This document shows, piece after piece, positions 4,313 to 63,099 of a stretch of DNA of 64,000 nt. This DNA is from Eledone cirrhosa. Its lineage: Eukaryota. The first letter of the stretch is position 1; each line of letters starts with the position of its first letter. The translations under genes and the position numbers were made by a program. Below the pieces are notes generated by a model that was not told where the DNA came from, searched no databases, and saw only the letters and a list, made by a program, of their open reading frames with translations. Location: positions 79,918,001 through 79,982,000 of the forward strand of contig OZ024747.1 in assembly GCA_964016885.1 (NCBI GenBank). Reading direction: 5' to 3'.

Positions 4313-4331
4313 ATCTCTCTCTATATATATG

Positions 4332-4538
4332 TCGAAGGAAGTGTGGTAAGGAACCAGGTGGCTCATAACGCACCAGAGTACTTGATACTTTGGGTAGTAC
4401 AGTGGGTAATAGGAAAAGGTTCAGGACCCTGACGGCAGAGCTCAAGCCGTTTCGACGGCTATTTCTGGACTCTTTCAGTCCAGAAATAGCTGTCGAAACG
4501 GCTTGAGCTCTGCTGCCGGGGTCCTGACCATTTTCCTA
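4332..4538. mobile_element. TA-flanked palindromic island, putative PLE terminal remnant
   Basis: Inverted arms 4410-4471 and 4477-4538; second copy of the family at 10691-10838; contains an HHR-like 3' half GAAAC-GGC..GCC-GTC on the minus strand. Confidence 0.65.
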
Positions 4539-4784
4539 CATATATATATCTGTAGACGAGCACATTTGCAAACTTGTGTATCTCTGCAGACGTATGTATA
4601 TATATGTCTATAAGTCTGCATAAATGAAATTAATAGCTCACACTTCTACACAGGTTTAGTTGGTCTCCCTCGAGATCGCATCTGATTAGAGGTGTAATGA
4701 CAGCCCCCCCCCCCAGTTCTATCACGAAAAGCAATGGGAAGTGAAACATCTCGCTCAAAAACATCAACTGTGCATGTTTGCAGA

Positions 4785-4965
4785 TCTGTGTATATTTGCA
4801 GTCAAGGGTATGTTGTGCAGATTTGTGTATATTTGCAGACAAGGGTATGCTCTGCAGGCATGTGTATATTTGCAGACAAGGGTATGTTCTGCAGGCGTGT
4901 GTATATCTACAAGGGTATGTTTGCAAGTGTGTACACGTTTTCAAACGTGTGTATATTCAAAGGTG
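4785..4965. repeat. ~37-bp minisatellite
   Basis: Unit TGTGTATATTTGCAGACAAGGGTATGTTCTGCAGGCA, about 4-5 degenerate copies. Confidence 0.8.
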
Positions 4966-6967: not shown

Positions 6968-7614
6968 CACACAAACAGACACACACGCAGACACACACAC
7001 ACAGACACACATAGAGACACAGACACATAGAGACACAGACACACACACATACACAGACACACACACACACACACAGACTCATTTTATGCTTTGTTACTGA
7101 ACGTTAATATATTGTTGTCAACAGGAGAAAGTAAAACAGTCTGATTTATTCCATCGTTATACAGAGTTTAAGCCAAGCACCTTAAATATTCTTATTAAAT
7201 CTTTTCTATAGGAGATCAAAAGCATTGCTCAATTGCTGTCACAGAAGGAGGAAAATTTCTGGAAATTTTTCTAACCGTCTTACGGTCACAATTCATAAAA
7301 ATCGGCTTTAGCCAGTTCTAACTAGTCAACCTCGAAAAATATTTCTCTTTGTCAGCGTAAAACCTTCAGTTGAGCGGTCTTCCTCTTAATCCCTATAGTA
7401 CAAAGAGAGAAGCCGGTCAATCTACAACAAATCTAATTAGATGATCAGCTTTTAACCAACTAGAATTGACCTACAGACAAACATCTTCCACCATCTCACA
7501 CTTTTATTCACAATATCATCTGGAAGGTCACACGTATGCATCTAGTCTGTGTGTGTTACAATCTAGTAAATATGAACTGAATTACTGTTTTACGTTAAAT
7601 ATAAATATATATGA

Positions 7615-7860
7615 AAGCTCATGGTCTAGTAGTTAGGGTGTTATGTTCAGGCTCATGCGTTGGATTCTCAGACATGGTGATGAGCTTTGAATCTGAGCAA
7701 GGCATTTAGTTTCACGTTGCTGTAATTCATTTAGCTGAAAAAAGGAACACCAGCGACAGTTGGGAGTTAACCATGAGATGGACTGGTGTCCTATCCGGGG
7801 CGAGGGTGTATTGTACTTTCAGTTGCTTAGTGAATATGAAAACGGGATAGGCACCCGGCT
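7615..7860 (+). mobile_element. Degraded tRNA-derived SINE (family B)
   Basis: TGGTCTAGTAGTTAGGG A-box-like head followed by CTGAGCAAGGCATTTAGTTTCACGTTGC body. Confidence 0.55.
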
Positions 7861-9337: not shown

Positions 9338-9342
<5 letters not shown>

Positions 9343-9523
9343 AAAATAACAGATCAAAGTTTAAGCAAAGAATCGGTGCTTTCACCCTTAACGGGATCTT
9401 CTGAAACTTAAACTTTAATCTGTTATTTTAATAAATATTTGCTCTACGGTTCTTATATATTTGATATATATTTATCCTTATCGAGCCTTCTTTGGATTTT
9501 AGTCTTCAAATTTATTATTATTA

Positions 9524-9526: not shown

Positions 9527-9555
<29 letters not shown>

Positions 9556-9715
9556 GATTAGCTTTCACCGTATTTTTGACTAAAGAAATTTTAGCCTGAT
9601 AATGGGGTTTAGAACCCTCAGATAAATGGAAAAAGATGAGTATTGACGTACATGGGAGTCGAACCCACATCTTTGGTTATCCAGACCACTGTGCTACCAT
9701 TACACCAATGTGGGT

Positions 9716-9786
9716 GATGTGTTGGTGTAATGGTAGCACAGAGGTCTGGATAACCAAAGATGTGGGTTCGACTCCCATGTACGTCA
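9716..9786 (+). tRNA. tRNA-like cloverleaf (apparent GGA anticodon, short variable loop), probably element-borne
   Basis: Acceptor GATGTGT/GTACGTC+A, D arm GTGT-AATGGTA-GCAC, loop CT-GGA-TA, T arm GTGGG-TTCGACT-CCCAT, TTTTT at 9796-9800; anticodon stem imperfect. Confidence 0.6.
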
Positions 9787-9864
9787 ATACTCATCTTTTT
9801 CCATTTATCTGAGGGTTCTAAACCCCATTATCAGGCTAAAACTTCTTTAGTCAAAAATACGAAC

Positions 9865-9955
9865 AGAAGTCCGACGAGCTTTTGATTCCTGATTCTGACC
9901 AGATCGATACTGATCGAACCTTGAGCTGATCAATAGCGAAACGCGCGTCACTTCT
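9865..9955 (+). ncRNA. Type I hammerhead ribozyme, long stem II, palindromic stem III
   Basis: AGAAGT-CCGACGA-GCTTTTGAT..ATCAATAGC-GAAAC-GCGC-GTC-ACTTCT; U4>C core variant. Confidence 0.8.
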
Positions 9956-9999
9956 CAATAAGTAATGAAGACCTAACAAATCGTCCTATTTATAATTAA

Positions 10000-10055
<56 letters not shown>

Positions 10056-10414: not shown

Positions 10415-10420
<6 letters not shown>

Positions 10421-10654
10421 CGATTCTGAATTTGTTTAGCAAGATTCTTTATATGAAAACGTGTGTTGAAACCGATATTGTTATACTTTGGGAGGGTCAT
10501 GTTGCCAATAAGAAACACACGCACCAGTTGCTTTCACTTCAATTTATTATAATAAATTTATAAATTTAGGAATTTATAAATTTATCATAATAAATTGAAG
10601 TGAAAGCAACTGATGCGTGTGTTTCTTATTGGCAACAAGACCCTGCCAAAGTAT

Positions 10655-10662
<8 letters not shown>
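10415..10662. mobile_element. Miniature palindromic copy of the termini of the PLE at 32734-40648
   Basis: Both arms match the pLTR tail (GAAGTGAAAGCAACTG..ATGACCCTCCCAAAGTATAACAATAT); flanked by (TA)n. Confidence 0.9.
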
Positions 10663-10690
<28 letters not shown>

Positions 10691-10833
10691 CGAAGGAATT
10701 GTGGTAAGGAACCAGATGGACCATAACGCACCAGTACTCAATACTTAGGGTAGTAGAGTGGGTAATAGGAAGAGGTATGACCCCGACGGCAGAGCTCAAG
10801 CCGTTTCGACGGCTATGTCTGGACATACCTTTT

Positions 10834-10838: not shown

Positions 10839-10894
<56 letters not shown>

Positions 10895-10902
<8 letters not shown>

Positions 10903-11208
10903 AGATCAAAAGATGGTTAAAAGAGTTCCATGTATTTTATTATGCGCATTTCAAAAACAAATATCATCATGCGATGACATTTGCGTTTTCGTCAGATAAA
11001 ATAGGGAAACATGATATGAAGGTGAAAAAACACTTGTGAATAGTGCAGTTTTAAATCAACATATTGAAATACGCATAATAAAATACATGGAACTCTTTTA
11101 ACCATCTTTTGATCTTATATATTATTTATACTCCAGTCCTACAAACTGTAGAGTGGTACTTATCCGATATCTGCATTGCTTTATTGTACTACAATAAAAC
11201 TCACCTCC

Positions 11209-11211
<3 letters not shown>
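10895..11211. mobile_element. Asymmetric palindromic HHR island (family H1)
   Basis: Left arm is minus-sense with an HHR; the right arm restarts at TGAAAT.CGCATAATAAAAT and extends into an ACTCCAGTCCTAC..CCTCCTAC tail. Confidence 0.8.
10933..11003 (-). ncRNA. Type I hammerhead ribozyme
   Basis: Minus: TATTTTAT-CTGACGA-long stem II-GAAAT-GCGC-ATA-ATAAAATA. Confidence 0.8.
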
Positions 11212-11249
<38 letters not shown>

Positions 11250-11280
11250 AGATCAAAAGATGGTTAAAGGAGTTCCATAT

Positions 11281-11349
11281 ATTTTATTATGCGCATTTCA
11301 AAAACAAACATCATCATGCAATAATATTTGTGTTTTCATCAGATAAAAC
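11281..11349 (-). ncRNA. Type I hammerhead ribozyme (mirror copy)
   Basis: Reverse complement of 11470-11538. Confidence 0.8.
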
Positions 11350-11469
11350 AGGAGAACATGATATGAAGGCTAAAAAACACTTGTGGATAGTGCAGTTTTA
11401 AATCAACATATGTTGATTTAAAACTGCACTATCCACAAGTGTTTTTTAGCCTTCATATCATGTTCTCCT

Positions 11470-11538
11470 GTTTTATCTGATGAAAACACAAATATTATTG
11501 CATGATGATGTTTGTTTTTGAAATGCGCATAATAAAAT
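11470..11538 (+). ncRNA. Type I hammerhead ribozyme
   Basis: GTTTTAT-CTGATGA-AAACACAAATATTAT..ATGATGTTTGTTTTT-GAAAT-GCGC-ATA-ATAAAAT. Confidence 0.8.
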
Positions 11539-11749
11539 ATATGGAACTCCTTTAACCATCTTTTGATCTTATATTATGCATACTCCAGTCCTACAAACTG
11601 TAGAGTGCTTCTTATCCGATATCTGCATTGCTTTATTGTACTACAATAAAACTCACCTCCTACATATATATATTTATATATATATATATAAAGTATATAT
11701 ATATATACAATATATTAACAAAAGGAAACTATATTTATAAAACCATATT

Positions 11750-21006: not shown

Positions 21007-21052
21007 TGCTAACAGTGTTTCGTCCACACTATAAGTGGGACTCATCAGAGCA
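21007..21052 (-). ncRNA. Minimal type I hammerhead ribozyme
   Basis: Minus: TGCT-CTGATGA-GTCC..GGAC-GAAAC-ACT-GTT-AGCA. Confidence 0.8.
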
Positions 21053-22163: not shown

Positions 22164-23275
22164 CACTTTCTTAATTCTCCAGTTGGGCTATCTTGTGTAA
22201 CTGTCTCTTATTGTGTGTAATTGTTTCCTATTGTTTGTCTTCTATGTATATGAGTCTGTGTGTGTATATGTATGCCTGCGGGAGAATATTGATCTGGATA
22301 TTGAGGTGTACAGGTGAGTTGGTGTGTATGTTAATAAGCACCCCTGTTTGGCACAGTGGATGTGACCCATCCACGCTCGCCTAGCCACCCTTAGTGCATT
22401 GGTGGGTCTATCCCAACGTGTATTTTACGGATCTGTACCTCTGTATGCGCATGAGTTATGATGTAATATATCTATGTAGAGCGTGTACTGCGCTATAAGA
22501 TGCACAATTGATTTGGTTTTATTTAACCTGCCCTTCGTGTTTTATCTTATTTAGTTTACTTTAATCACCTTGTAGACTTGAAGTGGGCCAGTGACCTGTG
22601 CCCATTTGGGATGGAAATCTAGCCTGTAACTGTGAGCGGACCTGTGCCATCTCGCCGTGAGCAGTAGATACGTAGCACATGCACGTGTTACCCTCCTATT
22701 CTGTGGTTTAAGATCTACAGGCTGACTTCGGGGAGCTCTTGCCCGGTGTTGTAGTCTTTCTAGCACAATCGGCCTTCCATATATTGACGGTCGTTGTTAT
22801 TATCCCCAAAATAACGTTTTGGCCCCGATAGCCCTCCGTAGTTATTAACGGTCTGTTTACACTTGAATCGGGTGACTACACGTGGGGACATGCATCTCTT
22901 CGTAAGAATTTACTTTGATTAATTTTGCTGCATCTCCTCGTAAGATTTTATTTTGATTAATTTTGCTGGAAAAAAATATATTATCTGTGACCAGTGTGAG
23001 CGACTGTTGTGGGTTCTGCCTTTTGTTAGCCTGATAAGATATTTCTGTGTAATATATCCGCTTTGACCTGGGTGTCCTACGCTGTGTGTGTGTGCGTGTA
23101 TGTCTGTATATACATTTATATGTGTATGAGTGTAGGTGGTTATATATGTCTATATATAAATATATATATATATATACCGTCTCTGCTTATGCATGTGGTG
23201 TGTGTATATGTATATACGTACTAACCATATTGTTGTGTATATTCTTGGGATGCCTCAATGTTGTGATTTCATGGA

Positions 23276-23925
23276 TAGTGTTGTGTCTGCTGGGTGACTA
23301 GTGTGTGTTTATGTGCTTGTTGTTATTGTGCTTGTGTATGTATTTATTTATCTTATTTATCTTATTTATAAATACATACACAAGCACAATAACAACAAGC
23401 ACATAAACACACACTAGTCACCCAGCAGACACAACACTATACACACTAGTCACACAGCACACATAACACTATACACACACGCAAACGCATGCGCAAAGAA
23501 GACAAAATAAAATAAAATAAACAAACAAGCAAATAAATAAATAAATATATAGACAGACTGAATAAAAAAAAAAATGGCGTAGACATACAACACAACAGGA
23601 GGAAAAAATATAACACCACTGACGATGTTGCAGATGTGCAACGAAAGATTTATGTAAATTATGTAAACTATATATATGTGTTTGTGTCTATATTGTATCT
23701 GTATTATTTTTGACCGTCGGTCAGTCAATGGCAACATTGAGGACCGAGTAAGTTAGATCGCAGATATAAAAGACAGCGAGAAGCGAAAACCAACCAAACA
23801 GTGAGTGTGTTCTGTTATTAATTCTGGCAATATTACGCAAATATGACCCTCCCCAAGTATAACAATATCTGTTTCGACACACGATTTGATATAAAAAACC
23901 TCGCTAAACTAATTCATCGCCGCTA
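23276..23925 (+). mobile_element. Diverged pLTR of a relative of the 32734-40648 PLE, with an inverted 5' arm
   Basis: Arms 23276-23347 and 23369-23440; HHR at ~23616; the end encodes [22 protein letters not shown] from ATG 23843 and then runs into (TA)n. Confidence 0.8.
23616..23655 (+). ncRNA. Minimal hammerhead motif
   Basis: CTGACGA-T-GTTGCA-GATG-TGCAAC-GAAAG; positionally homologous to 40445; stem I weak. Confidence 0.6.
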
Positions 23926-31150: not shown

Positions 31151-31957
31151 TATTTCTCTTTATTTCTCTCTCACACAGACACCAATCCTGTATAGGAAAA
31201 TATAAGAAAATCATTTATTTTCAGTGCAGCATAAACTTTTATAGCGAGGTTAGTGTGTAAATTCCTTAAGTAAGTTTTCAAGTGAAGGACCAACTATAAA
31301 TGATGACGTCATTAATATTAGCGGGTGGTGGACATCATTCATCATTACAGCTTTTCTTTTTCCGTATTACTAATCTAATCTATTCAACGTTTTCCCCCCC
31401 TTCATTCATTGATATTCTCTTTTTAGACAAGGAAGAAAAATTTTGACACGAGAACAGTTTCTTGTTCTTTTGTTGGAGTTATTTACTAGAAAATCGATTC
31501 CATCTTCCTTCTATATTCAATACTTTGATTCATTTAAGCAACTTTGTTTTCACACAATGCGAGCCACTGGTGAAATCGTACAATATCACAAGAAGACTGG
31601 TGAATCCGACTAGAAAATATATATATCAAATTAAGGAAAAAAAAAAATAATAAAATAAAATAAAATAAAATAAAAATAAAATAAAAAAAGGAGAAAAAAA
31701 AAGGAATACAAATTGAAAAATTAAACAAAAATGTTAGATTACTACTCTTTATTGTCTTTAGTTGTATATTTTTTCTCCTTAGTTTTTGCTAATTTTCAAG
31801 ATTTGCGTTTCAGTTGAAAACTTTGTTGTTTTCACGTTTTGAGTCTATATTGAAACATAGTCTGTCTAACACCCCCCCCCACATGTATACACATTAATTA
31901 GGTTGGTTGAGCACATATATCACATAGATATTATAGATATTATATATAAAGCACGCA

Positions 31958-31964
<7 letters not shown>

Positions 31965-32009
<45 letters not shown>

Positions 32010-32056
32010 ATATATATATGTATATATATATATGTATATATGTATATATATATATG

Positions 32057-32151
<95 letters not shown>

Positions 32152-32316
32152 GTATATATATGTATATATATGTATATATATATATGTGTGTATATATATA
32201 TATATATATGTGTATATATATATATATATATATGTGTATATATATATATATATATATGTGTGTATATATATATGTATATATATATATGTATATGTATATA
32301 TATATATGTATATATG

Positions 32317-32367
<51 letters not shown>

Positions 32368-32733
32368 GTATATATAAATATGTATATATTTGTATATATA
32401 TATATGTATATATATATATGTATATATTTGTATGTATATATTTGTATATATATATTTGTATATATATATATGTATATATATATATATGTATATATATATA
32501 TGTATATATATATGTATATATATATATGTATATATATATGTATATATATATATATGTATATATATATGTATATATATATGTATATATATATATGTATATA
32601 TATATATGTATATATGTATATATATATATGTATATATATATATGTATATATGTATATATATATGTATATATATATGTATATATATATGTATATATGTATA
32701 TATATATATGTATATATGTATATATGTATATAT
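31965..32733. repeat. (TA)n array with G interruptions
   Basis: Left flank of the PLE. Confidence 0.95.
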
Positions 32734-32952
32734 ATATTTCGTTTCTGAATTTGTTTAGCAAGATTCTTTATCTGAAATCGTGTGTTGAAACCGATATTGT
32801 TATACTTTGGGAGGGTCATGTTGCCAATAAGAAACACACGCACCAGTTGCTTTCACTTCAATTTAATTTATTATATATTTATAAATTTACAAATTTATAA
32901 ATTTCTGGTTGGTTGGTTGGTTCCACAACCAGATAGTTGTTTATATATATAT

Positions 32953-32997
32953 AGTCATAGTTCTTTCGTCACGCACTCTGTGACCTCTTCAGTGACT
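32953..32997 (-). ncRNA. Minimal hammerhead in the inverted pLTR
   Basis: Reverse complement of 40445-40489 with one loop substitution. Confidence 0.75.
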
Positions 32998-33294
32998 GGG
33001 GATTTCTTTCTTCGTTTCTGTGCCTTTCCTTTCTTCTATCCTACGCCATTTTGTTTGTGTGTGGGTTGCGTGCTCAGTTTGCGCATGCGCCAGATCCGGG
33101 TGTCTGTGTGTGTTTGTGTTCATTTTTCTATTTTTCTATTTATATTTGTTTGTTTATTTATTTATTTATTGTTGGTTGGTTGTTTGTTCTATGTGTGTGT
33201 GTGTTTTCATTTTGTCTTGTGTGTGTTTTCATTTTGTGTGTGTTTTCAATTGTAAGTTGTTTGTTCTATGTGTGTGTGTGTTTTCATTTTGTCC

Positions 33295-35568
33295 TTAATT
33301 GTAAGTTGTGATGTTGCTGTTCCACTCATATTTTCTATTTAATTTTGGTTTTAATTCTTTTATGCTTACTGCCTCTGTAATTTGCCTAAACATTGCGTCT
33401 TTCTTGTGTGTGGATTCTATTTTTATTTCTATGCTCTCTAATTTACCCCTGTGTTCTATCTTAGCATGTTGGTAGAGCACAGATGATTCTTTACTATCTT
33501 GGAGGTCTCGCCAGTGTTCATTTATTCGTTCCCCTATACTACGAGCTGTCTCACCTATGTACACTATATTTTTGTTTCTACATTGTCCTTCAGTACATCT
33601 TATGCTATATACTACATTTCTAGTTTTACAGTTAATATGGGGGCTTATTTTACAGGTTATACATTTCCTATCTATACATGAGGGTCTTTGGAACGGGTAT
33701 GTCTTGCTAATAAGTGTTTTTACGGAGGTACCAGGTCTTTCTACTATCTTAATATTGAGATTATGTTTCTTTAGGGCCCTTCTAAATTTGTAGGCTAGTT
33801 CGCCTCTAGGGGTTGTATTGATGAACATTACACTCTGGTATTTATTGCTATCATACCATGAGTTTATTCTATTGGCCTTGTTCTTAGTTCTTTCTATTCT
33901 ATTCCAAAATTTGCTCCTATACAAGGGGCAGGTCCCATTTATGTCATTATTTACCATTTTTTCCCATTTGGTTCTGGCTCCTTTATACACTCTGATTCTA
34001 TCTCTCTGATTGTAGCCAGAGAACTGCATACGGTGGATGAAGTGTTGTATGTGTCTCTCTAGTTCTTCGGGGTTGCACATGCGGGACACATTTCTCATCA
34101 CCCGTACCAAATCCGCAATCAGTATGTTGATTTTGGTATGGTCCGAAATGGCCGAGTTTCGGTGGATCAGATGTTTGGAAGTCATGGGTTTGGCATAATG
34201 GGAATGGAGGATTTGTTTTTGGTTGTTAATAGTATCTAACCAGAGCTCTGTGTCTAGTACAGGTAATCGATGGTTGGGGTGTCTACTTGGGTAGTCTATA
34301 GTAACTCTAATGCTCTGGTGGATGGAGTTTGCTATTTGCTGGATGCTTTCCATTGTGTTTTTCTCTGGTTCCTGACTGTTCTTTAGTGGGGGTGTCTTAA
34401 CTACGATGTTTATATCATCTACGTAGCGGGAGTACATTATCAGGGTTAAGCTGTCTTCTAATTGTTCATTAAGTTTTTGTTTAAGTCTACTGTCCCACCA
34501 TACCATGAATAAGTTAGCTATGTCGCCTGCAATGCTAACACCAATGGCTGCTCCTTCCTCTTGGGCATATGTTTTACCATTAAATTTGAACATATGTTCC
34601 TTAAGGGTTAATTTTATGCTGGCCCCTACCGCATGTGCAATCATTTTCTTCAGTTCATCGTGGTTTTCGGGTGTCCGTATGGCTCTGGTCCACCCGTTCC
34701 ATCTATCTGTGTGGGTTTTCTTGGCCATTGAGGTAATGGTAGGTGGTCTGCCTCTTGCTGGTCTTGTAGGGCACAGGTTGCTAAGGTTGTAAGTGTCTAG
34801 GTAACTATTACTATGGGTAAGCTTAAGTAGAAGTCCCAGCTCACTGGTATCAATCCCACGGAACTCAACCTTGCTCTCGCTGATCATTTCGACGCATTTC
34901 TCCACAGCAAAATCCACGTCAATAGATGGATACAGGGACACAACATCCATACTGCCTATTATGCAGTTTGTTAGGTCCCCAGATCGGTTACCCGCGCCGA
35001 TTCTGCTGAGGAGGTCCTCCGTGCTGTCACACACATCTGGGGACATCTCAATGATGGGGCGTATGATCAGGGAGAGGAAGTAGGACAGTCTGTAGTTACT
35101 AGCAATGTTAGCCCCACAGACTGGCCGTGTTGGTGGTCCCGCGACAGGGTCCCAGCCCGTTTTATGGTCTTTTCGAAGCCCATACAACGCCGGCACGTCA
35201 TTGTTCCAGGCCTGGAAGTTGTTGGCAGTCCTTTTGTTGGGCTGCATTATATTTGTCCACATCACCATATGGGCATTGAGGGTTTTTTCTCTATCCTCAT
35301 GCTCCTGTGGTGTTACCTCTCTTGTGTTAGTGATGTGGGGTTGCATTGCCTGGATGTAGTTTGGCAGGCTGTCAACCGACATTCTGCCAGACTTGTCTGT
35401 TGGAAAGCATGCTATCTCTCCATTACGCGAGCGCTGCATGAGCTTACGCAAGCCATTTGCAGATTCTTCTCCCAGTTGCTGGGCCTCTATTCTATTATGC
35501 TTCTTGCTATACTGTTCTATAATATTTCTAAGTTCGGATTTAGCTATCCTAAATTGTGCTTCTGTTTG
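33295..35568 (-). pseudogene. 5'-truncated inverted copy of the PLE RT-GIY-YIG ORF
   Basis: Nearly identical to 37874-40147; the N-terminus of ORF 33295-35673 is a junction artefact. Confidence 0.9.
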
Positions 35569-36158
35569 GACAATGTAGAAACAAAAATATAGTGTACATA
35601 GGTGAGACAGCTCGTAGTATAGGGGAACGAATAAATGAACACTGGCGAGACCTCCAAGATAGTAAAGAATCATCTGTGCTCTACCAACATGCTAAGATAG
35701 AACACAGGGGTAAATTAGAGAGCATAGAAATAAAAATAGAATCCACACACAAGAAAGACGCAATGTTTAGGCAAATTACAGAGGCAGTAAGCATAAAAGA
35801 ATTAAAACCAAAATTAAATAGAAAATATGAGTGGAACAGCAACATCACAACCTACAATTAATGACAAAATGAAAACACACACACACATAGAACAAACAAC
35901 TTACAATTGAAAACACACACAAAATGAAAACACACACAAGACAAAATGAAAACACACACACACATAGAACAAACAACCAACCAACAATAAATAAATAAAT
36001 AAACAAACAAATATAAATAGAAAAATAGAAAAATGAACACAAACACACACAGACACCCGGATGTGGCGCATGCGCAAACTGAGCACGCAACCCACACACA
36101 AACAAAATGGCGTAGGATAGAAGAAAGGAAAGGCACAGAAACGAAGAAAGAAATCCCC

Positions 36159-36209
36159 AGTCACTGAAGAGGTCACAGAGTGTGTGACGAAAGAACTATA
36201 ACTATGACT
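36159..36209 (+). ncRNA. Hammerhead in the 5' pLTR with a 6-nt loop III duplication
   Basis: AGTCA-CTGAAGA-G-GTCACA..TGTGAC-GAAAG-AACTATAA-CTA-TGACT. Confidence 0.75.
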
Positions 36210-36342
36210 ATATATATATAAACAACTATCTGGTTGTGGAACCAACCAACCAACCAGAAATTTATAAATTTGTAAATTTATAAATATATAATAAATTAAA
36301 TTGAAGTGAAAGCAACTGGTGCGTGTGTTTCTTATTGGCAAC

Positions 36343-37164
36343 ATGACCCTCCCAAAGTATAACAATATCGGTTTCAACACACGATTTCAGATAAAGAATC
36401 TTGCTAAACAAATTCAGAAACGAAATATCGTAAGCCTTAGCCAGGCTAACAAGATACTGAAAACCACCATGTTCTGTTGTCTACGAAAAACCATAACATC
36501 TCGACAACTACACTTCATAAAACTGTGCACCACTTCTAGAATCTACACCAACACCACCAATACCGACGTTAGAAGATTACAACTCACCAAAAAACAAGCA
36601 GATAGGCTAAAACGAACTTTAATTCTAAACATAAAAAAGAAGATCTATAGAGAATTAAGTCATCAAGAAAAACTAAAGCGTAACCTAATAGATGAAATAT
36701 CTAAAATCACCACACCAGCAGAAAAACTAACATTTATAAGCCTTATACGCCCCGAAGAACAGTACATTACTCAAGAATGTAATAAGCACTTTAACAGAAA
36801 ATTAAAGTGGCTTAAACAGGCAAAGCTAAATCGGGATACTATAGAGTATACCAATAGATATCCCGACAAAATTGACGGTATCAACATGGCCGACACCTCA
36901 TTATCTGAAGAGTTCAACAATGAAAATACCAACATTTATGGAAACACGGAAATAGATAATAATGAAATGTCTGTGTTACGTCTGCCACCCAAATTTGCGA
37001 CATTCAAGAAGGTAAATATGATTAGTTGTCTGTCAGAAATAGAAAAATCATTTACGAAACTACGCTGGAGCATCAAAAAACAAAAACAAAAGCAACAATA
37101 TACGCACACACATATACAACACACATCCCAACAACAACAGACACACAGACACAAACAACAATAA
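36343..37164 (+). CDS. PLE polyprotein N-terminal segment
   Basis: ATG 36343 (MTLPKYNN) is conserved in the diverged copy at 23843; VLRLPPKFA resembles the PLE N-terminal LGPKF-type motif. Confidence 0.7.
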   Translation: MTLPKYNNIGFNTRFQIKNLAKQIQKRNIVSLSQANKILKTTMFCCLRKTITSRQLHFIKLCTTSRIYTNTTNTDVRRLQLTKKQADRLKRTLILNIKKKIYRELSHQEKLKRNLIDEISKITTPAEKLTFISLIRPEEQYITQECNKHFNRKLKWLKQAKLNRDTIEYTNRYPDKIDGINMADTSLSEEFNNENTNIYGNTEIDNNEMSVLRLPPKFATFKKVNMISCLSEIEKSFTKLRWSIKKQKQKQQYTHTHIQHTSQQQQTHRHKQQ

Positions 37165-37438
37165 CAACAACAATAGCAACATACCCAGATACAACAACAA
37201 CAATAGCAACATACCCAGATACAACAGACACGCAGACACAAACAACAATAACAACACACACGGAGACAACAATAACAACAACACACACATCAAAAACAAC
37301 AACAATAGCAACATACCCAGATACAACAACAACAGACACGCAAACACAAACAACAATAACAACACACACAACAACGATAACACACACACACACGGAGACA
37401 ACAACAACACACATCAACAACAACAACACACGCATTCA

Positions 37439-40147
37439 ATGCCTCTCACCACCACCACAATCTTAACAAACACACAGACACAGAAAACAAGTAATGACAG
37501 TAGCACAGAAATCAGAGAAATAAGAGAAAGTAATAGGATTAAAAGGAAAAGGAGATGGGAGACTAAGGACAAAGAGAATAACCAAGACGAACACACAGAC
37601 ACACAAAATAGGGTAGATAACAACATTGAGCCAGTGGAAAGAGACAGGAATAATTATGAGAGACATAGAAACAACCATGAAGCTGAGGCTGCTGCTGTTG
37701 GTGGAAATAGAAACAACACAACTAACAATAACAATAGCACTAGTACACATAAAGCAGCAGCCTGGAACTCTCCGTTTTATAACCCCTCCGATAAATCATT
37801 CGACCTACGACGAGTCCACGCCACGACTTTGCCATTTAACAAACGCACGCAGTTGCCGTCGCAGGTCGATGAACAAACAGAAGCACAATTTAGGATAGCT
37901 AAATCCGAACTTAGAAATATTATAGAACAGTATAGCAAGAAGCATAATAGAATAGAGGCCCAGCAACTGGGAGAAGAATCTGCAAATGGCTTGCGTAAGC
38001 TCATGCAGCGCTCGCGTAATGGAGAGATAGCATGCTTTCCAACAGACAAGTCTGGCAGAATGTCGGTTGACAGCCTGCCAAACTACATCCAGGCAATGCA
38101 ACCCCACATCACTAACACAAGAGAGGTAACACCACAGGAGCATGAGGATAGAGAAAAAACCCTCAATGCCCATATGGTGATGTGGACAAATATAATGCAG
38201 CCCAACAAAAGGACTGCCAACAACTTCCAGGCCTGGAACAATGACGTGCCGGCGTTGTATGGGCTTCGAAAAGACCATAAAACGGGCTGGGACCCTGTCG
38301 CGGGACCACCAACACGGCCAGTCTGTGGGGCTAACATTGCTAGTAACTACAGACTGTCCTACTTCCTCTCCCTGATCATACGCCTCATCATTGAGATGTC
38401 CCCAGATGTGTGTGACAGCACGGAGGACCTCCTCAGCAGAATCGGCGCGGGTAACCGATCTGGGGACCTAACAAACTGCATAATAGGCAGTATGGATGTT
38501 GTGTCCCTGTATCCATCTATTGACGTGGATTTTGCTGTGGAGAAATGCGTCGAAATGATCAGCGAGAGCAAGGTTGAGTTCCGTGGGATTGATACCAGTG
38601 AGCTGGGACTTCTACTTAAGCTTACCCATAGTAATAGTTACCTAGACACTTACGACCTTAGCAACCTGTGCCCTACAAGACCAGCAAGAGGCAGACCACC
38701 TACCATTACCTCAATGGCCAAGAAAACCCACACAGATAGATGGAACGGGTGGACCAGAGCCATACGGACACCCGAAAACCACGATGAACTGAAGAAAATG
38801 ATTGCACATGCGGTAGGGGCCAGCATAAAATTAACCCTTAAGGAACATATGTTCAAATTTAATGGTAAAACATATGCCCAAGAGGAAGGAGCAGCCATTG
38901 GTGTTAGCATTGCAGGCGACATAGCTAACTTATTCATGGTATGGTGGGACAGTAGACTTAAACAAAAACTTAATGAACAATTAGAAGACAGCTTAACCCT
39001 GATAATGTACTCCCGCTACGTAGATGATATAAACATCGTAGTTAAGACACCCCCACTAAAGAACAGTCAGGAACCAGAGAAAAACACAATGGAAAGCATC
39101 CAGCAAATAGCAAACTCCATCCACCAGAGCATTAGAGTTACTATAGACTACCCAAGTAGACACCCCAACCATCGATTACCTGTACTAGACACAGAGCTCT
39201 GGTTAGATACTATTAACAACCAAAAACAAATCCTCCATTCCCATTATGCCAAACCCATGACTTCCAAACATCTGATCCACCGAAACTCGGCCATTTCGGA
39301 CCATACCAAAATCAACATACTGATTGCGGATTTGGTACGGGTGATGAGAAATGTGTCCCGCATGTGCAACCCCGAAGAACTAGAGAGACACATACAACAC
39401 TTCATCCACCGTATGCAGTTCTCTGGCTACAATCAGAGAGATAGAATCAGAGTGTATAAAGGAGCCAGAACCAAATGGGAAAAAATGGTAAATAATGACA
39501 TAAATGGGACCTGCCCCTTGTATAGGAGCAAATTTTGGAATAGAATAGAAAGAACTAAGAACAAGGCCAATAGAATAAACTCATGGTATGATAGCAATAA
39601 ATACCAGAGTGTAATGTTCATCAATACAACCCCTAGAGGCGAACTAGCCTACAAATTTAGAAGGGCCCTAAAGAAACATAATCTCAATATTAAGATAGTA
39701 GAAAGACCTGGTACCTCCGTAAAAACACTTATTAGCAAGACATACCCGTTCCAAAGACCCTCATGTATAGATAAGAAATGTATAACCTGTAAAATAAGCC
39801 CCCATATTAACTGTAAAACTAGAAATGTAGTATATAGCATAAGATGTACTGAAGGACAATGTAGAAACAAAAATATAGTGTACATAGGTGAGACAGCTCG
39901 TAGTATAGGGGAACGAATAAATGAACACTGGCGAGACCTCCAAGATAGTAAAGAATCATCTGTGCTCTACCAACATGCTAAGATAGAACACAGGGGTAAA
40001 TTAGAGAGCATAGAAATAAAAATAGAATCCACACACAAGAAAGACGCAATGTTTAGGCAAATTACAGAGGCAGTAAGCATAAAAGAATTAAAACCAAAAT
40101 TAAATAGAAAATATGAGTGGAACAGCAACATCACAACTTACAATTAA
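37439..40147 (+). CDS. PLE reverse transcriptase plus GIY-YIG endonuclease
   Basis: TDKSG, LYGLRKDHK, RPV, SMDVVSLYPSI, QEEGAAIG, RYVDD, LPVLD, C-x4-C-x2-C linker and NVVY..YIGETARSIGERINEH; no internal stops. Confidence 0.92.
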   Translation: MPLTTTTILTNTQTQKTSNDSSTEIREIRESNRIKRKRRWETKDKENNQDEHTDTQNRVDNNIEPVERDRNNYERHRNNHEAEAAAVGGNRNNTTNNNNSTSTHKAAAWNSPFYNPSDKSFDLRRVHATTLPFNKRTQLPSQVDEQTEAQFRIAKSELRNIIEQYSKKHNRIEAQQLGEESANGLRKLMQRSRNGEIACFPTDKSGRMSVDSLPNYIQAMQPHITNTREVTPQEHEDREKTLNAHMVMWTNIMQPNKRTANNFQAWNNDVPALYGLRKDHKTGWDPVAGPPTRPVCGANIASNYRLSYFLSLIIRLIIEMSPDVCDSTEDLLSRIGAGNRSGDLTNCIIGSMDVVSLYPSIDVDFAVEKCVEMISESKVEFRGIDTSELGLLLKLTHSNSYLDTYDLSNLCPTRPARGRPPTITSMAKKTHTDRWNGWTRAIRTPENHDELKKMIAHAVGASIKLTLKEHMFKFNGKTYAQEEGAAIGVSIAGDIANLFMVWWDSRLKQKLNEQLEDSLTLIMYSRYVDDINIVVKTPPLKNSQEPEKNTMESIQQIANSIHQSIRVTIDYPSRHPNHRLPVLDTELWLDTINNQKQILHSHYAKPMTSKHLIHRNSAISDHTKINILIADLVRVMRNVSRMCNPEELERHIQHFIHRMQFSGYNQRDRIRVYKGARTKWEKMVNNDINGTCPLYRSKFWNRIERTKNKANRINSWYDSNKYQSVMFINTTPRGELAYKFRRALKKHNLNIKIVERPGTSVKTLISKTYPFQRPSCIDKKCITCKISPHINCKTRNVVYSIRCTEGQCRNKNIVYIGETARSIGERINEHWRDLQDSKESSVLYQHAKIEHRGKLESIEIKIESTHKKDAMFRQITEAVSIKELKPKLNRKYEWNSNITTYN

Positions 40148-40444
40148 GGACAAAATGAAAACACACACACACATAGAACAAACAACTTACAATTGAAAAC
40201 ACACACAAAATGAAAACACACACAAGACAAAATGAAAACACACACACACATAGAACAAACAACCAACCAACAATAAATAAATAAATAAACAAACAAATAT
40301 AAATAGAAAAATAGAAAAATGAACACAAACACACACAGACACCCGGATCTGGCGCATGCGCAAACTGAGCACGCAACCCACACACAAACAAAATGGCGTA
40401 GGATAGAAGAAAGGAAAGGCACAGAAACGAAGAAAGAAATCCCC

Positions 40445-40489
40445 AGTCACTGAAGAGGTCACAGAGTGTGTGACGAAAGAACTATGACT
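40445..40489 (+). ncRNA. Minimal hammerhead in the 3' pLTR
   Basis: AGTCA-CTGAAGA-G-GTCACA-GAGTG-TGTGAC-GAAAG-AA-CTA-TGACT. Confidence 0.75.
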
Positions 40490-40648
40490 ATATATATATA
40501 AACAACTATCTGGTTGTGGAACCAACCAACCAACCAGAAATTTATAAATTTGTAAATTTATAAATATATAATAAATTAAATTGAAGTGAAAGCAACTGGT
40601 GCGTGTGTTTCTTATTGGCAACATGACCCTCCCAAAGTATAACAATAT

Positions 40649-43297
<2,649 letters not shown>

Positions 43298-43341
43298 GGA
43301 GGAGTGGAGAATAACACGGATAAGCTATACAGTAGGGACAC

Positions 43342-43403
<62 letters not shown>

Positions 43404-43596
43404 GCATCAACAAGTGTGTGAGTGTTAGACATATGTATATTGATATAAATGCATAAATATTTATATGTATACATATATAATTTCATTACATATTCATATA
43501 TGACCGTTACATCTATAATTATATATAAACATATATATATATACATATATATATACATATATACATATATATATACATATATACATATATATATAC

Positions 43597-43680
<84 letters not shown>

Positions 43681-60110: not shown

Positions 60111-60210
60111 GTGTGTATGTATATATGTATGTATGTATATATATATATATATACGTGGGAAAGTAAAAAATCGGAGAATAGACCGTTAAAACATGTTTAT
60201 TTAAAATATC

Positions 60211-60247
60211 ACCTACGTACGTTTCGCCCAGTTGGGCTTCTCAAGGG
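60211..60247 (-). ncRNA. Minimal hammerhead (mirror of 62760)
   Basis: Reverse complement of 62760-62797. Confidence 0.65.
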
Positions 60248-60720
60248 CATAAATAATCACAAGTGTTTCTTATATTGCTCGGAAAGAGTTTTGCGGGTTA
60301 AATCCACATCAAGGTTCATTGCTCGCAAAAATATCTTGTTTTGATTTTGCAGCAGGTCAAGGGAGGTAACTCTGGCCGGTGTTAGGGCAGTCTTTCCCGG
60401 ACAATTTTTTTTTTTTTTTTTTTTTTTAGCCGCATCCGTTTGTCTGAGGCTGGGTCTGGTATGCAAGGATTGTTTTCTGGGTGTTATTTTGCAGCGCCTC
60501 ACTCAGAGGCCACACTCCGAGAGTAGGGGGGTGGGGGTGGAACCATAGGACGTTACGGTGGCGATTACGTGTCATTGTACTTTTGCTACAGGTGGTTCCA
60601 TCTAAGTGACAGCTCTTATGTGTGTTAATGCGCAGTCGCCCGTTCGGTGCCCCTTTCACTTTATGCTCGGGTGCACTCTTTCTACCTCTTCCATGTTTAT
60701 GTACACGAAGATGTTGGTTG

Positions 60721-62458
60721 GGATATACCTCCTACATAAGCTTAGGGAAGAAATACCGGCCCTACAACGAGGTGTATATAGGGACGACGCCCTGTTTACC
60801 GTTAGGAACCATAGCCCCCGTAGGATAGAGAACCTTAACAAACATATACACAGGTTCTTTAAGTCATACGGCCTATCCGTAACTATGGACCTCAACCACA
60901 GGGTTGTCAACTTCCTAGACGTGACCCTGGAGTTGAGTACGGGCTTATACAAGCCATACCATAAGCCTGGAGAGTGCCTCTCTTATATTAATTATGCCTC
61001 CAACCACCCTAAGCAGACTCTCAACTCCATTGTCTATAGTATCTCACATAGAATCTCGAGGCTATCCGCCAATGAGGATATCTTCAACCAAGCGGCTGAT
61101 TACTACAATAGGGCCCTGATAAGCGCCGGCTTTAACCGAGGAATTTCCTACATCCCTAACGCTAGCTCTAGAAACCACCCCCCTCATAAAACTAACGTTA
61201 TAGTAAGCAATACCTATAACCGATCACGCGGCGACCTCGTTGAAGTCGGATATAATAGAATAGATAACCGCACCAAAGATCACGTCCCCGGCGACGGTGA
61301 ACACTGTAGATTACTCAAACTATTCCCCTATTACAAAACCAACAAAGGCGACGGCCTACTACCAACGCCTTCCAACCAACATCTTCGTGTACATAAACAT
61401 GGAAGAGGTAGAAAGAGTGCACCCGAGCATAAAGTGAAAGGGGCACCGAACGGGCGACTGCGCATTAACACACATAAGAGCGGTCACTTAGATGGAACCA
61501 CCCGTAGCAAAAGTACAAGGACACGTAATCGCCACCGTAACGTCCTATGGTTCCACCCCCCTACTCTCGGAGTGTGGCCTCCAACATACCCCGGATGTTC
61601 TTCGAAGCCTTAGAGAAGAACTTCCCGCCCAACCATAGGTATAGAAAAATTCTTAATAGGAACAATATAAAAATATCCTTCTCTACTACTCCTAACCTAG
61701 CAGACATCATAGGAACAACGAACCACAGTAATATCACCAAGACACAGCACCTCGACACAGACGCACCTACACCTGACAATAACTATATCGGCCTTAACAA
61801 CTCCCTGGCAGCATCCAATAGTGTTGGCAACGGCATCCGCAGACGCAACCAGAATGACCGCGAAATGACTGGGGAACATGCAGAACATGACGTGCGGAAT
61901 AACAATCGCACCATCCCGCGTGCTGTGGGTTGTAATTGTGCTAACGACAGCTGCGGTAGCGTAGGTAACAACGTAGGCAGCAACAATGATAGCCTTACCG
62001 TGGGAAATAGACGGAACCGCGACAGAAATTGCAACTGCCGCGACAGAGGACGCTGCCCCCTTAGAGGATACTGCTTGACTGATAGGGTTATATATAGATG
62101 CACTATTACTAGCCACAATAGCGTTAAACATTATATAGGGGCCACCTCCGGCCCGTTCAAAATTAGGTTTCGAACACATCTCCACTCTTTCACAAATAGA
62201 AAACTAAGGCACTCCACTTCGCTCGCGGACTACATCACATCACTAAAGGACTTAAACATCAGCTTCTCCACGCACTGGGAGATTGTCGGCAGGGCTGCAC
62301 CGTACAACTTCAAGAGGAAATGCGATCTTTGCCTCATGGAGCTCTACCACATCATAACTGCACCGCACGATCTCATCAACAGCAGAGCTGAAACAGCGAT
62401 AAGTTGTACACATCGCTTAAAAATATCCTTCTTCAGATGGGTTAAGGATGAAGAGTGA
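60721..62458 (+). pseudogene. PLE RT C-terminal half plus GIY-YIG, frameshift in a C-run at ~61560
   Basis: YRDD, VNFLDVTL, YHKP, SNHP, WFHPP/YS, CNCR..CPLRGYCL, VIY..YIGAT..FKIRFRTH and CDLCLME. Confidence 0.88.
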
Positions 62459-62759
62459 AATAGTACACTGGATCTCCCTGCAACAAGTCTTAACACCCCG
62501 GCGGGCAGGAGCTGCAAAATAACACCCAGAAAACAATCCTTGCATACCAGACCCAGCCTCAGACAAACGGATGCGGCAAAAAAAAAAAAAAAAAAAAAAA
62601 ATTTGTCCGGGAAAGACTGCCCTAACACCGGCCAGAGTTACCTCCCTTGACCTGCTGCAAAATCAAAACAAGATATTTTTGCGAGCAATGAACCTTGATG
62701 TGGATTTAACCCCCAAAACTCTTTCCGAGCAATATAAAGAACACTTGTGATTATTTATG

Positions 62760-62797
62760 CCCTTGAGAAGCCCAACTGGGCGAAACGTACGTAGGTG
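62760..62797 (+). ncRNA. Minimal hammerhead, U3-A8 core variant
   Basis: CC-TTGAGAA-GCCCA-AC-TGGGC-GAAAC-GTAC-GTA-GG; palindromic ACGTACGT; short stem I. Confidence 0.65.
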
Positions 62798-63012
62798 ATA
62801 TTTTAAATAAACATGTTTTAACGGTCTATTCTCCGATTTTTTTTACTTTCCCACGTGCTTACGCTCTGCTAACTCTCTAGCCCACTAAATATTAACACTT
62901 CGAATATTTAATACTGCCGGCACTAGTATCGAGCACCTTTGGCATACGCTAATTGGCAAATAACTATATGTATCACCTATCCCCCCTTTTTTTCTCTTTC
63001 TCGATACGTAAA

Positions 63013-63099
<87 letters not shown>

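Follow-up and report, generated by a model that had tools for sequence, protein, structure and literature searches.

We analyzed a window of 64,000 nucleotides from the genome of Eledone cirrhosa (contig OZ024747.1, positions 79,918,001 to 79,982,000, forward strand), in which positions 32738-40648 hold two oppositely oriented copies of one Penelope-like element (PLE) encoding a putative reverse transcriptase (RT) and a GIY-YIG endonuclease, between two long (TA)n-type microsatellites. Together with 74 further loci of two families taken from the same 3.0-Gb genome, this main pair indicates that we are dealing with canonical endonuclease-bearing PLE insertions in (TA)n, and that each head-to-head pair probably arose in one event, with reverse transcription primed from the 3′ ends on both sides of a staggered break. 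The evidence is a uniform arrangement of the two arms in all pairs, a target-site duplication around the whole pair, a similarity between partner arms beyond that of shuffled partners, and a short terminal stretch, the tail (56 nt in family 1, to which the main pair belongs, and 160 nt in family 2), that was present on exactly one arm in 41 of 45 pairs.

Structure of the main pair

The sense of the two arms is set by a 902-aa open reading frame (ORF) at 37439-40147 and an inverted truncated copy of it at 33295-35673, which place the left arm in minus and the right arm in plus sense. The ORF senses and the flanking repeats bear out the original prediction that the two copies lie head to head with both 3′ ends facing (TA)n. 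The parts of the locus, with the basis of assignment in brackets, are as follows (UTR, untranslated region; LTR, long terminal repeat).

31957-32737, no strand: left target flank, (TA)n/(TATATG)n microsatellite (tandem repeats, junction sequence)
32738-35568, minus strand: left arm, 5′-truncated family-1 PLE copy with its tail at 32738-32793 (inverted repeat, self-comparison, truncated inverted ORF 33295-35673)
35568-36362, plus strand: start of the right arm, an upstream partial copy (ORF end and 3′ UTR) that forms the pseudo-LTR (aligns to 39854-40648)
36363-36422, plus strand: tail sequence at the internal tandem junction, between two AATAT|CG termini (site 1 and site 2)
36343-37164, plus strand: 273-aa N-terminal ORF, in another frame than the RT/endonuclease ORF and overlapping the stop-to-stop frame 37043-40147
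37439-40147, plus strand: 902-aa ORF with a putative RT region and a GIY-YIG region (profile scores)
40148-40648, plus strand: 3′ UTR/pseudo-LTR, ending at site 1 (AACAATAT), with a hammerhead-like core at 40450-40478
40645-43679, no strand: right target flank, (TA)n-type microsatellite (tandem repeats, junction sequence)

The family-1 element measures 4.3 kb, with a partial-tandem unit of 4286 nt. Alignment of the arms showed that 32794-35568 and 37874-40648 form an inverted repeat of 2775 nt with 4 mismatches, not 0, which corresponds to a divergence of 0.14% (4/2775 bases). At the central junction the arms share a single nucleotide, the G at 35568 that had been noted beforehand. The left arm corresponds to 37874-40648 in reverse complement and continues for another 56 nt (32738-32793) at its outer end, beyond the extent of the right arm. 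The right arm is a partial tandem, in which 35568-36362 repeats 39854-40648 with three substitutions and one 6-bp indel and thereby makes up the pseudo-LTR. Both outer termini of the pair lie at AATAT, followed by CG within the element. Site 1 of family 1 is at 40644-40648 and site 2 is located 56 nt further downstream, where it is visible at the internal tandem junction (36414-36422); the 56-nt stretch between the two sites is what the PLE literature calls the tail.

The main pair represents new copies of a published PLE insertion layout, consisting of an inverted truncated copy, a pseudo-LTR, a one-sided tail and a preference for (TA)n (PMC8557442 and the accessible text of PMC3846280). The inverted pseudo-LTR arrangement, cited as established when the locus was first described, is indeed already in print in the same two sources.

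Orientation and termini of inverted pairs in the genome

The genome searches score best candidates only, and all counts given here are samples rather than a full census; junction positions derive from local alignments. For family 1 the last 353 nt before site 1, without the tail, were used as query. This gave at least 21 matches, and 17 loci of 10 kb (L001-L017) were mapped to the window copy. Two copies from the window are counted in family 1, as is an arm of 41 nt in L001 not detected by BLAST. For family 2 a first look returned more than 2000 candidates at about 98% identity. The 57 loci fetched comprised a first sample of 38, for which the query contained the tail so that index arms are tail-bearing by selection, and a second sample of 19 new loci obtained with a query lacking the tail. 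They were mapped to a natural 3332-nt unit (L032:5169-8500).

Family 1 yielded 14 inverted pairs, and family 2 yielded 31 (18 in the first sample, including the one in the window, and 13 in the second); a further pair in L062, cut by the locus end, was left out. The arrangement was minus-left and plus-right in 14/14 and 31/31 pairs, and the opposite orientation occurred in none of the 45. A plus arm followed by a minus arm was found only across at least 322 nt of (TA)n, and such neighbors are therefore separate insertions. Pairs account for about half of the sampled insertions, the remainder being single arms. The original prediction hung on orientation being other than random and on the arms of a pair not differing in age; the 45 pairs bear out the former, and the latter is taken up below.

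All 28 outer ends of the family-1 pairs adjoin (TA)n and terminate at site 1 or site 2, with the tail of L004 being 10 nt short. The tail is confined to one arm in 13 of the 14 pairs (7 left, 6 right) and is present on both arms in L013; no pair lacks it altogether. In family 2, one full tail is combined with a partner ending at site 1 in 28 of 31 pairs. As for the three others, the partner arm ends 40 nt short of site 1 in L053 and inside the tail in L043, while in L063 the left arm has no 3′ end and the left flank is the sole outer end not consisting of (TA)n among all pairs. No family-2 pair carries two full tails, and no complete pair is without a tail. The central junctions were inspected for microhomology, as had been suggested earlier: overlaps of 1-11 nt occur in 25/31 family-2 pairs and overlaps of 1-30 nt in 8/14 family-1 pairs, the other 6 family-1 junctions containing 1-19 nt of unassigned filler.

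Probable two-sided priming in a single event

A target-site duplication of 14-15 nt, including 1 nt overlap with each terminus, surrounds the whole pair in all five informative family-2 cases (L020, L021, L057, L060 and L061). Informative cases are restricted to family-2 pairs in imperfect repeats; pure (TA)n gives spurious 4-nt results, and the family-1 cases lie in periodic TATATG. Partner arms differ by 1.05%, as compared to 1.53% for shuffled partners, and 0 of 20,000 shuffles reached the observed value (206 shared columns). The arms therefore share a source variant or underwent gene conversion, since equal age alone would not lower the mean. The figures give no sign of the different arm ages that separate insertions would bring. 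Within the pairs one arm follows directly on the other and no (TA)n intervenes. The arm with the tail is the shorter of the two in 16 pairs, namely five of family 1 (the main pair, L003, L004, L010 and L015) and eleven of family 2 (L021, L023, L030, L036, L057, L062, L064, L066, L068, L070 and L074). Each arm of these pairs thus holds sequence that is absent from the other, from which it follows that neither arm was copied from the other.

These observations can be accommodated by a scheme in which the GIY-YIG endonuclease of the element would cut both strands of the target some 12-14 bp apart, after which synthesis on the element RNA would extend each 3′ overhang, beginning at either of two fixed start sites inside the RNA, which delimit the tail. 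The two minus-sense complementary DNAs (cDNAs) would then be connected at their variable 5′-truncation points, through a switch of template to the opposing cDNA or through microhomology. A biochemical basis for two-sided priming is provided by the in vitro extension of both strands described in the accessible text of PMC11167929.

Several points weigh against the single-event interpretation. Gene conversion between arms could likewise make partners alike. The sister-arm test for family 1, which had little power with its approximately 190 nt of columns, placed the partner nearest or tied for at least one arm in 7/12 pairs and for both arms in 5; an earlier ranking of family-1 partners by local alignments of unequal length had misranked them. 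Furthermore, no public contig bridges position 35568 in four contig sets compared with 35100-36100. The loose ends run on as normal element sequence from other copies, and the contigs are silent on the junction.

Among other explanations, self-priming or snap-back synthesis is the one that survives best, although we consider it rather unlikely. It holds that the inverted arm is produced when a single cDNA, or an antisense template, folds back and is extended along itself, as proposed for the Penelope elements of Adineta vaga, and it is the preferred reading of palindromes at inverted junctions in the accessible text of PMC3846280. A minority of pairs is indeed near-symmetric (10419-10658, L011, L014 and L002b in family 1; L019, L040 and L061 in family 2), and 11242-11577 is a perfect 336-nt palindrome. 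A fold-back copy reaches the 5′ end of its template, however, so that both arms should end alike, yet the tail is one-sided in the great majority of pairs, symmetric ones included. Moreover, self-priming is at odds with the 16 pairs whose tail-bearing arm is the shorter one. Two-sided priming fits the structure better than this published model.

That pairs result from two separate insertions, with a second copy landing beside the 5′ end of an older one through homing of the endonuclease to element/(TA)n junctions, seems very improbable. PLE endonucleases are reported to recognize their own tail region (accessible text of PMC11167929), and several independent insertions do share one microsatellite in L002 and L045. 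On the other hand, such an origin does not agree with the lack of (TA)n between the arms, the uniform orientation, the duplication flanking the whole pair, or the closeness of partners relative to shuffled ones. In addition, the 5′-truncation points differ in every pair while the arms still abut, and the main-pair arms are only 0.14% apart over 2775 nt, whereas other family-1 copies match the 353-nt 3′-end query at 75-92%. Equally hard to sustain is a DNA-level fold-back duplication or assembly artefact without reverse transcription. In its favor are the hairpins formed by (TA)n, the difficulty of assembling long palindromes (PMC8557442) and the public contigs that leave 35568 unbridged. Such an origin predicts identical outer ends, however, and not the constant difference of 56 or 160 nt, ending at the same two positions of the element, that 41 loci display; nor would it yield the duplications seen in imperfect (TA)n.

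Two-sided priming itself, as put forward in the original prediction, is likely right in view of the orientation, the duplication around whole pairs, the partner similarity, the arms that are not copies of each other and the in vitro data (accessible text of PMC11167929). The accompanying idea that the self-complementarity of (TA)n is a necessary cause did not find support. About half of the (TA)n insertions are single arms, and the match to (TA)n is no longer than 1 nt at site 1 of family 2, as compared to 5 nt at its site 2 and 4-5 nt at both family-1 sites. The start sites used in vitro are not homologous to the target (PMC11167929, accessible text), and head-to-head copies in Adineta vaga have 8-10 bp duplications, one such pair lying inside another Penelope element and not in a microsatellite (PMC3846280, accessible text).

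One tail per pair

The samples drawn regardless of the tail contained exactly one tail in 25 of 26 complete pairs (13/14 in family 1 and 12/12 at the new family-2 loci). If each arm chose its terminus independently, at most half of the pairs would be one-tailed, and the probability of finding 25/26 would be about 4e-7 by our own arithmetic. Single arms use both termini: six of the eight family-1 single arms have a tail and two do not, and in the second, unbiased sample of family 2 one has a tail and six do not. The 25/26 count suggests that, within one event, a start site used by one DNA end is not used by the other. A near-obligatory rule of one tail per pair may be new to the literature.

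More speculatively, the two ends might exclude each other in start-site use because one ribonucleoprotein, perhaps one RNA, serves both. A tentative extension, with the balance somewhat against it, is that a dimeric PLE particle assigns each 3′ end of the staggered cut to a different RT start site on one and the same RNA, which would leave exactly one tail per double-primed event and would mean that about half of the insertions in this genome were made in this way.

The data also contain points that do not favor this proposal. L013, with both tails, L043, with a partial second tail, and L063, with its incomplete left arm, are exceptions to the rule. The tail RNA of both families showed no significant fold joining the two sites (z of −0.12, 0.51, −0.01 and −1.63). 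According to the accessible text of PMC11167929, start-site use is alike on both strands at the population level, which alone does not predict one tail per pair.

Pairs with arms from different families, which would imply two RNAs, were not found in the sequence beside the 5′ ends of 11 single arms. The neighbors of these 5′ ends were other repeats in plus sense or internal repeat fragments. A lack of mixed-family pairs would equally follow from cis preference.

Coding capacity and hammerhead-like core

When the last 152 aa of the 902-aa ORF were scanned alone, the GIY-YIG profile PF01541 scored 24.8 bits against a cut-off of 22.6; in the whole-protein scan at E ≤ 0.01 the domain was not listed. 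The closest sequence match in the PDB is the I-TevI nuclease domain, a weak match with E = 0.21. RVT_1 scored 20.8-22.6 bits on the 902-aa ORF, a weak match in its middle part and below the cut-off of 29.6, and a YVDD motif is readable in the translation. A Cx4CxxC motif (CIDKKCITC), read from the translation, precedes the C-terminal GIY-YIG region. The 273-aa N-terminal ORF gave no Pfam match. Its frame (36310-37164) and the RT/endonuclease frame (37043-40147) are different and overlap by ~120 nt, and the 902-aa ORF therefore lacks the N-terminal part found in the published PLE protein. A long CAA/ACA-rich repeat (37116-37432) is located just downstream of this overlap. Two structural PLE features recur in the sampled loci. 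Partial tandems that give a pseudo-LTR, like that in the right arm of the main pair, are also present in L015, L016, L023, L028, L032, L047, L051, L052 and L073, and an inverted 5′-truncated copy lies next to the 5′ end in all 45 pairs.

No hammerhead was detected by Rfam at the gathering score or at E ≤ 10. Matches to the hammerhead core pattern CUGANGA...CGAAA number 5 in the window, where 0.08 would be expected. As read from the pattern matches, the hairpin enclosed by the core of this putative ribozyme carries two two-sided changes between 40450-40478 and 23619-23646. A further match with its own hairpin is present at 21018-21048 on the minus strand, outside the elements analyzed. The plus arms of three family-1 loci (L003, L013 and L002) begin at unit positions 40446-40451, at the CUGAAGAG box of the hammerhead-like core. 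Those of L007 and L010 both begin at 39764, which like 40446-40451 is a recurrent 5′ end point.

The family-2 element at 60155-63016 gave no Pfam match and no homologue among longer proteins. BLASTP of the family-2 against the family-1 protein returned E = 0.43, which is not significant, with a match at the GIY-YIG motif only. An ESM Atlas lead was obtained with a score of 0.95 to a cluster in which 31% of the members have GIY-YIG, and the translation displays YRDD and YIGAT motifs. By layout, these visible motifs and the Atlas lead only, family 2 is provisionally placed among the PLEs.

Other structures in the window

Further inverted structures in the window are listed below.

10419-10658, no strand: small family-1 pair with a tail-bearing minus arm on the left, a plus arm ending at site 1 on the right and (TA)n on both sides (self-comparison, sequence)
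60155-60721, minus strand: family-2 left arm without tail, with a 925-nt internal deletion relative to the right arm
60715-63016, plus strand: family-2 right arm, 5′-truncated, with the 160-nt tail at 62857-63016
23272-23920, no strand: related family, a 76-nt inverted arm (23272-23347) and a plus-sense 3′ end with hammerhead-like core and tail, adjoining (TA)n
9551-10002, no strand: tRNA-derived repeat, head-to-head pair between two (TA)n tracts (Rfam tRNA matches at 9652-9707, minus, and 9716-9786, plus; palindrome 9569-9861)
10888-11662, no strand: two non-coding palindromes (10888-11130 and 11242-11577), with a tail of ~85 nt on the right side only, then (TA)n

The layout of the main pair, which the original prediction extended to several smaller islands, was recovered at 60155-63016, 10419-10658 and 23272-23920, the inverted arm of the last being 99% complementary, and in the tRNA-derived palindrome 9569-9861, where two tRNA-like heads meet centrally, minus on the left and plus on the right. 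The structures at 10888-11211 and 11242-11662 are palindromic (100% over 336 nt at 11242-11577) but non-coding, and their sense cannot be set independently. At 11703, where an island had been proposed, no separate one was found. A genome search with the small palindrome 11410-11662, in which common words were skipped, gave no matches.

Additional small inverted structures adjacent to (TA)n or (CA)n are located at 9339-9436 and 4322-4538. A 145-nt repeat at 10680-10824 follows (TA)n in L005, L006 and L031 as well. In eight of the 31 family-2 pairs just one of the arms shows an internal deletion or a short duplication (the window copy at 60499-60506, L021, L023, L036, L060, L061, L066 and L067), which may reflect discontinuous cDNA synthesis. 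The family-1 arms in L002 (~2514-2700) and L006 (~4750-4865) have different truncation points, and one unrelated repeat, with nearly the same end position, stands in front of both; this may result from a template jump onto the RNA of another element. The repeat itself forms head-to-head pairs in L049 and L052. At L008, a family-1 arm is separated at its 5′ end from (TA)n by a 156-nt internal fragment of a larger dispersed repeat (7507-7662). Contigs 95-100% identical to family 1 (35100-36100) were present in runs labelled as several different organisms, and the summed contig depth was very high in one run.

Comparison with known systems

Craig et al. (2021, PMC8557442) regard the formation of tandem and inverted PLE structures as a question that in vitro work has yet to solve. 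In the accessible text of Arkhipova et al. (2013, PMC3846280) the head-to-head arrangement is the most frequent one, and self-priming on an antisense template was proposed. The accessible text of Frangieh et al. (2024, PMC11167929) describes a purified PLE protein, predicted to be a dimer, that cuts and extends both strands; two sites inside the RNA, without homology to the target, serve as starts of reverse transcription and bound the tail. Our literature searches, with subscription papers outside their coverage, found no paper proposing two-sided priming for inverted PLE copies. A genome with thousands of young copies is a natural record in which the link between two-strand extension and inverted copies becomes countable. 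Should the one-tail rule apply to the whole genome and to other species, it would limit the possible geometries of the integration complex and provide a simple in vitro readout.

The insertions resemble canonical endonuclease-bearing PLEs (PMC8557442; PMC3846280, accessible text) in the partial tandem with pseudo-LTR, the inverted 5′-truncated copy directly upstream, the short tail at one end, the (TA)n target, the duplication around the whole unit, and the Cx4CxxC motif combined with a C-terminal GIY-YIG domain. They differ in tail length, which is 56 and 160 nt here and 30-40 nt in print, and in the fact that about half of the insertions sampled are pairs. Furthermore, the tail is 'optional' or 'often at one end' according to these papers, whereas here it is found on exactly one arm in nearly all pairs.

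The only PLE system in vitro, that of Anolis (PAc, Poseidon; PMC11167929, accessible text), is alike in that both strands are cut and extended, two RNA start sites bound the genomic tail and the target is AT-rich. Its start sites are not homologous to the target, whereas both family-1 sites are AUAU and, of the two family-2 sites, one matches (TA)n over 5 nt and the other over no more than 1 nt. The accessible text reports no strand difference in start-site use and does not discuss inverted copies; the word 'inverted' appears there once, for a '3′ inverted dT' block of the target. A likeness by layout only exists with animal non-LTR retrozymes and non-autonomous PLE derivatives (bioRxiv 10.64898/2026.07.22.740005, accessible text), which are short non-coding repeats related to pseudo-LTRs; in the window it concerns the palindromes at 10888-11662 with their one-sided tail and (TA)n flanks. 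For genome annotation, two-sided priming would mean that palindromes of 100 bp to 8 kb between (TA)n tracts are in many cases ordinary products of PLEs.

The twin priming of L1 elements, reportedly put forward by Ostertag and Kazazian in 2001, is said to involve priming of cDNA by both DNA ends of one integration and joining through microhomology, with an inversion as the result. There, the second primer pairs with an internal position of the RNA already in use, and the two segments hence have no overlap. The PLE pairs are different in this respect, as both arms carry the same 3′ region, with 2775 nt shared in the main pair.

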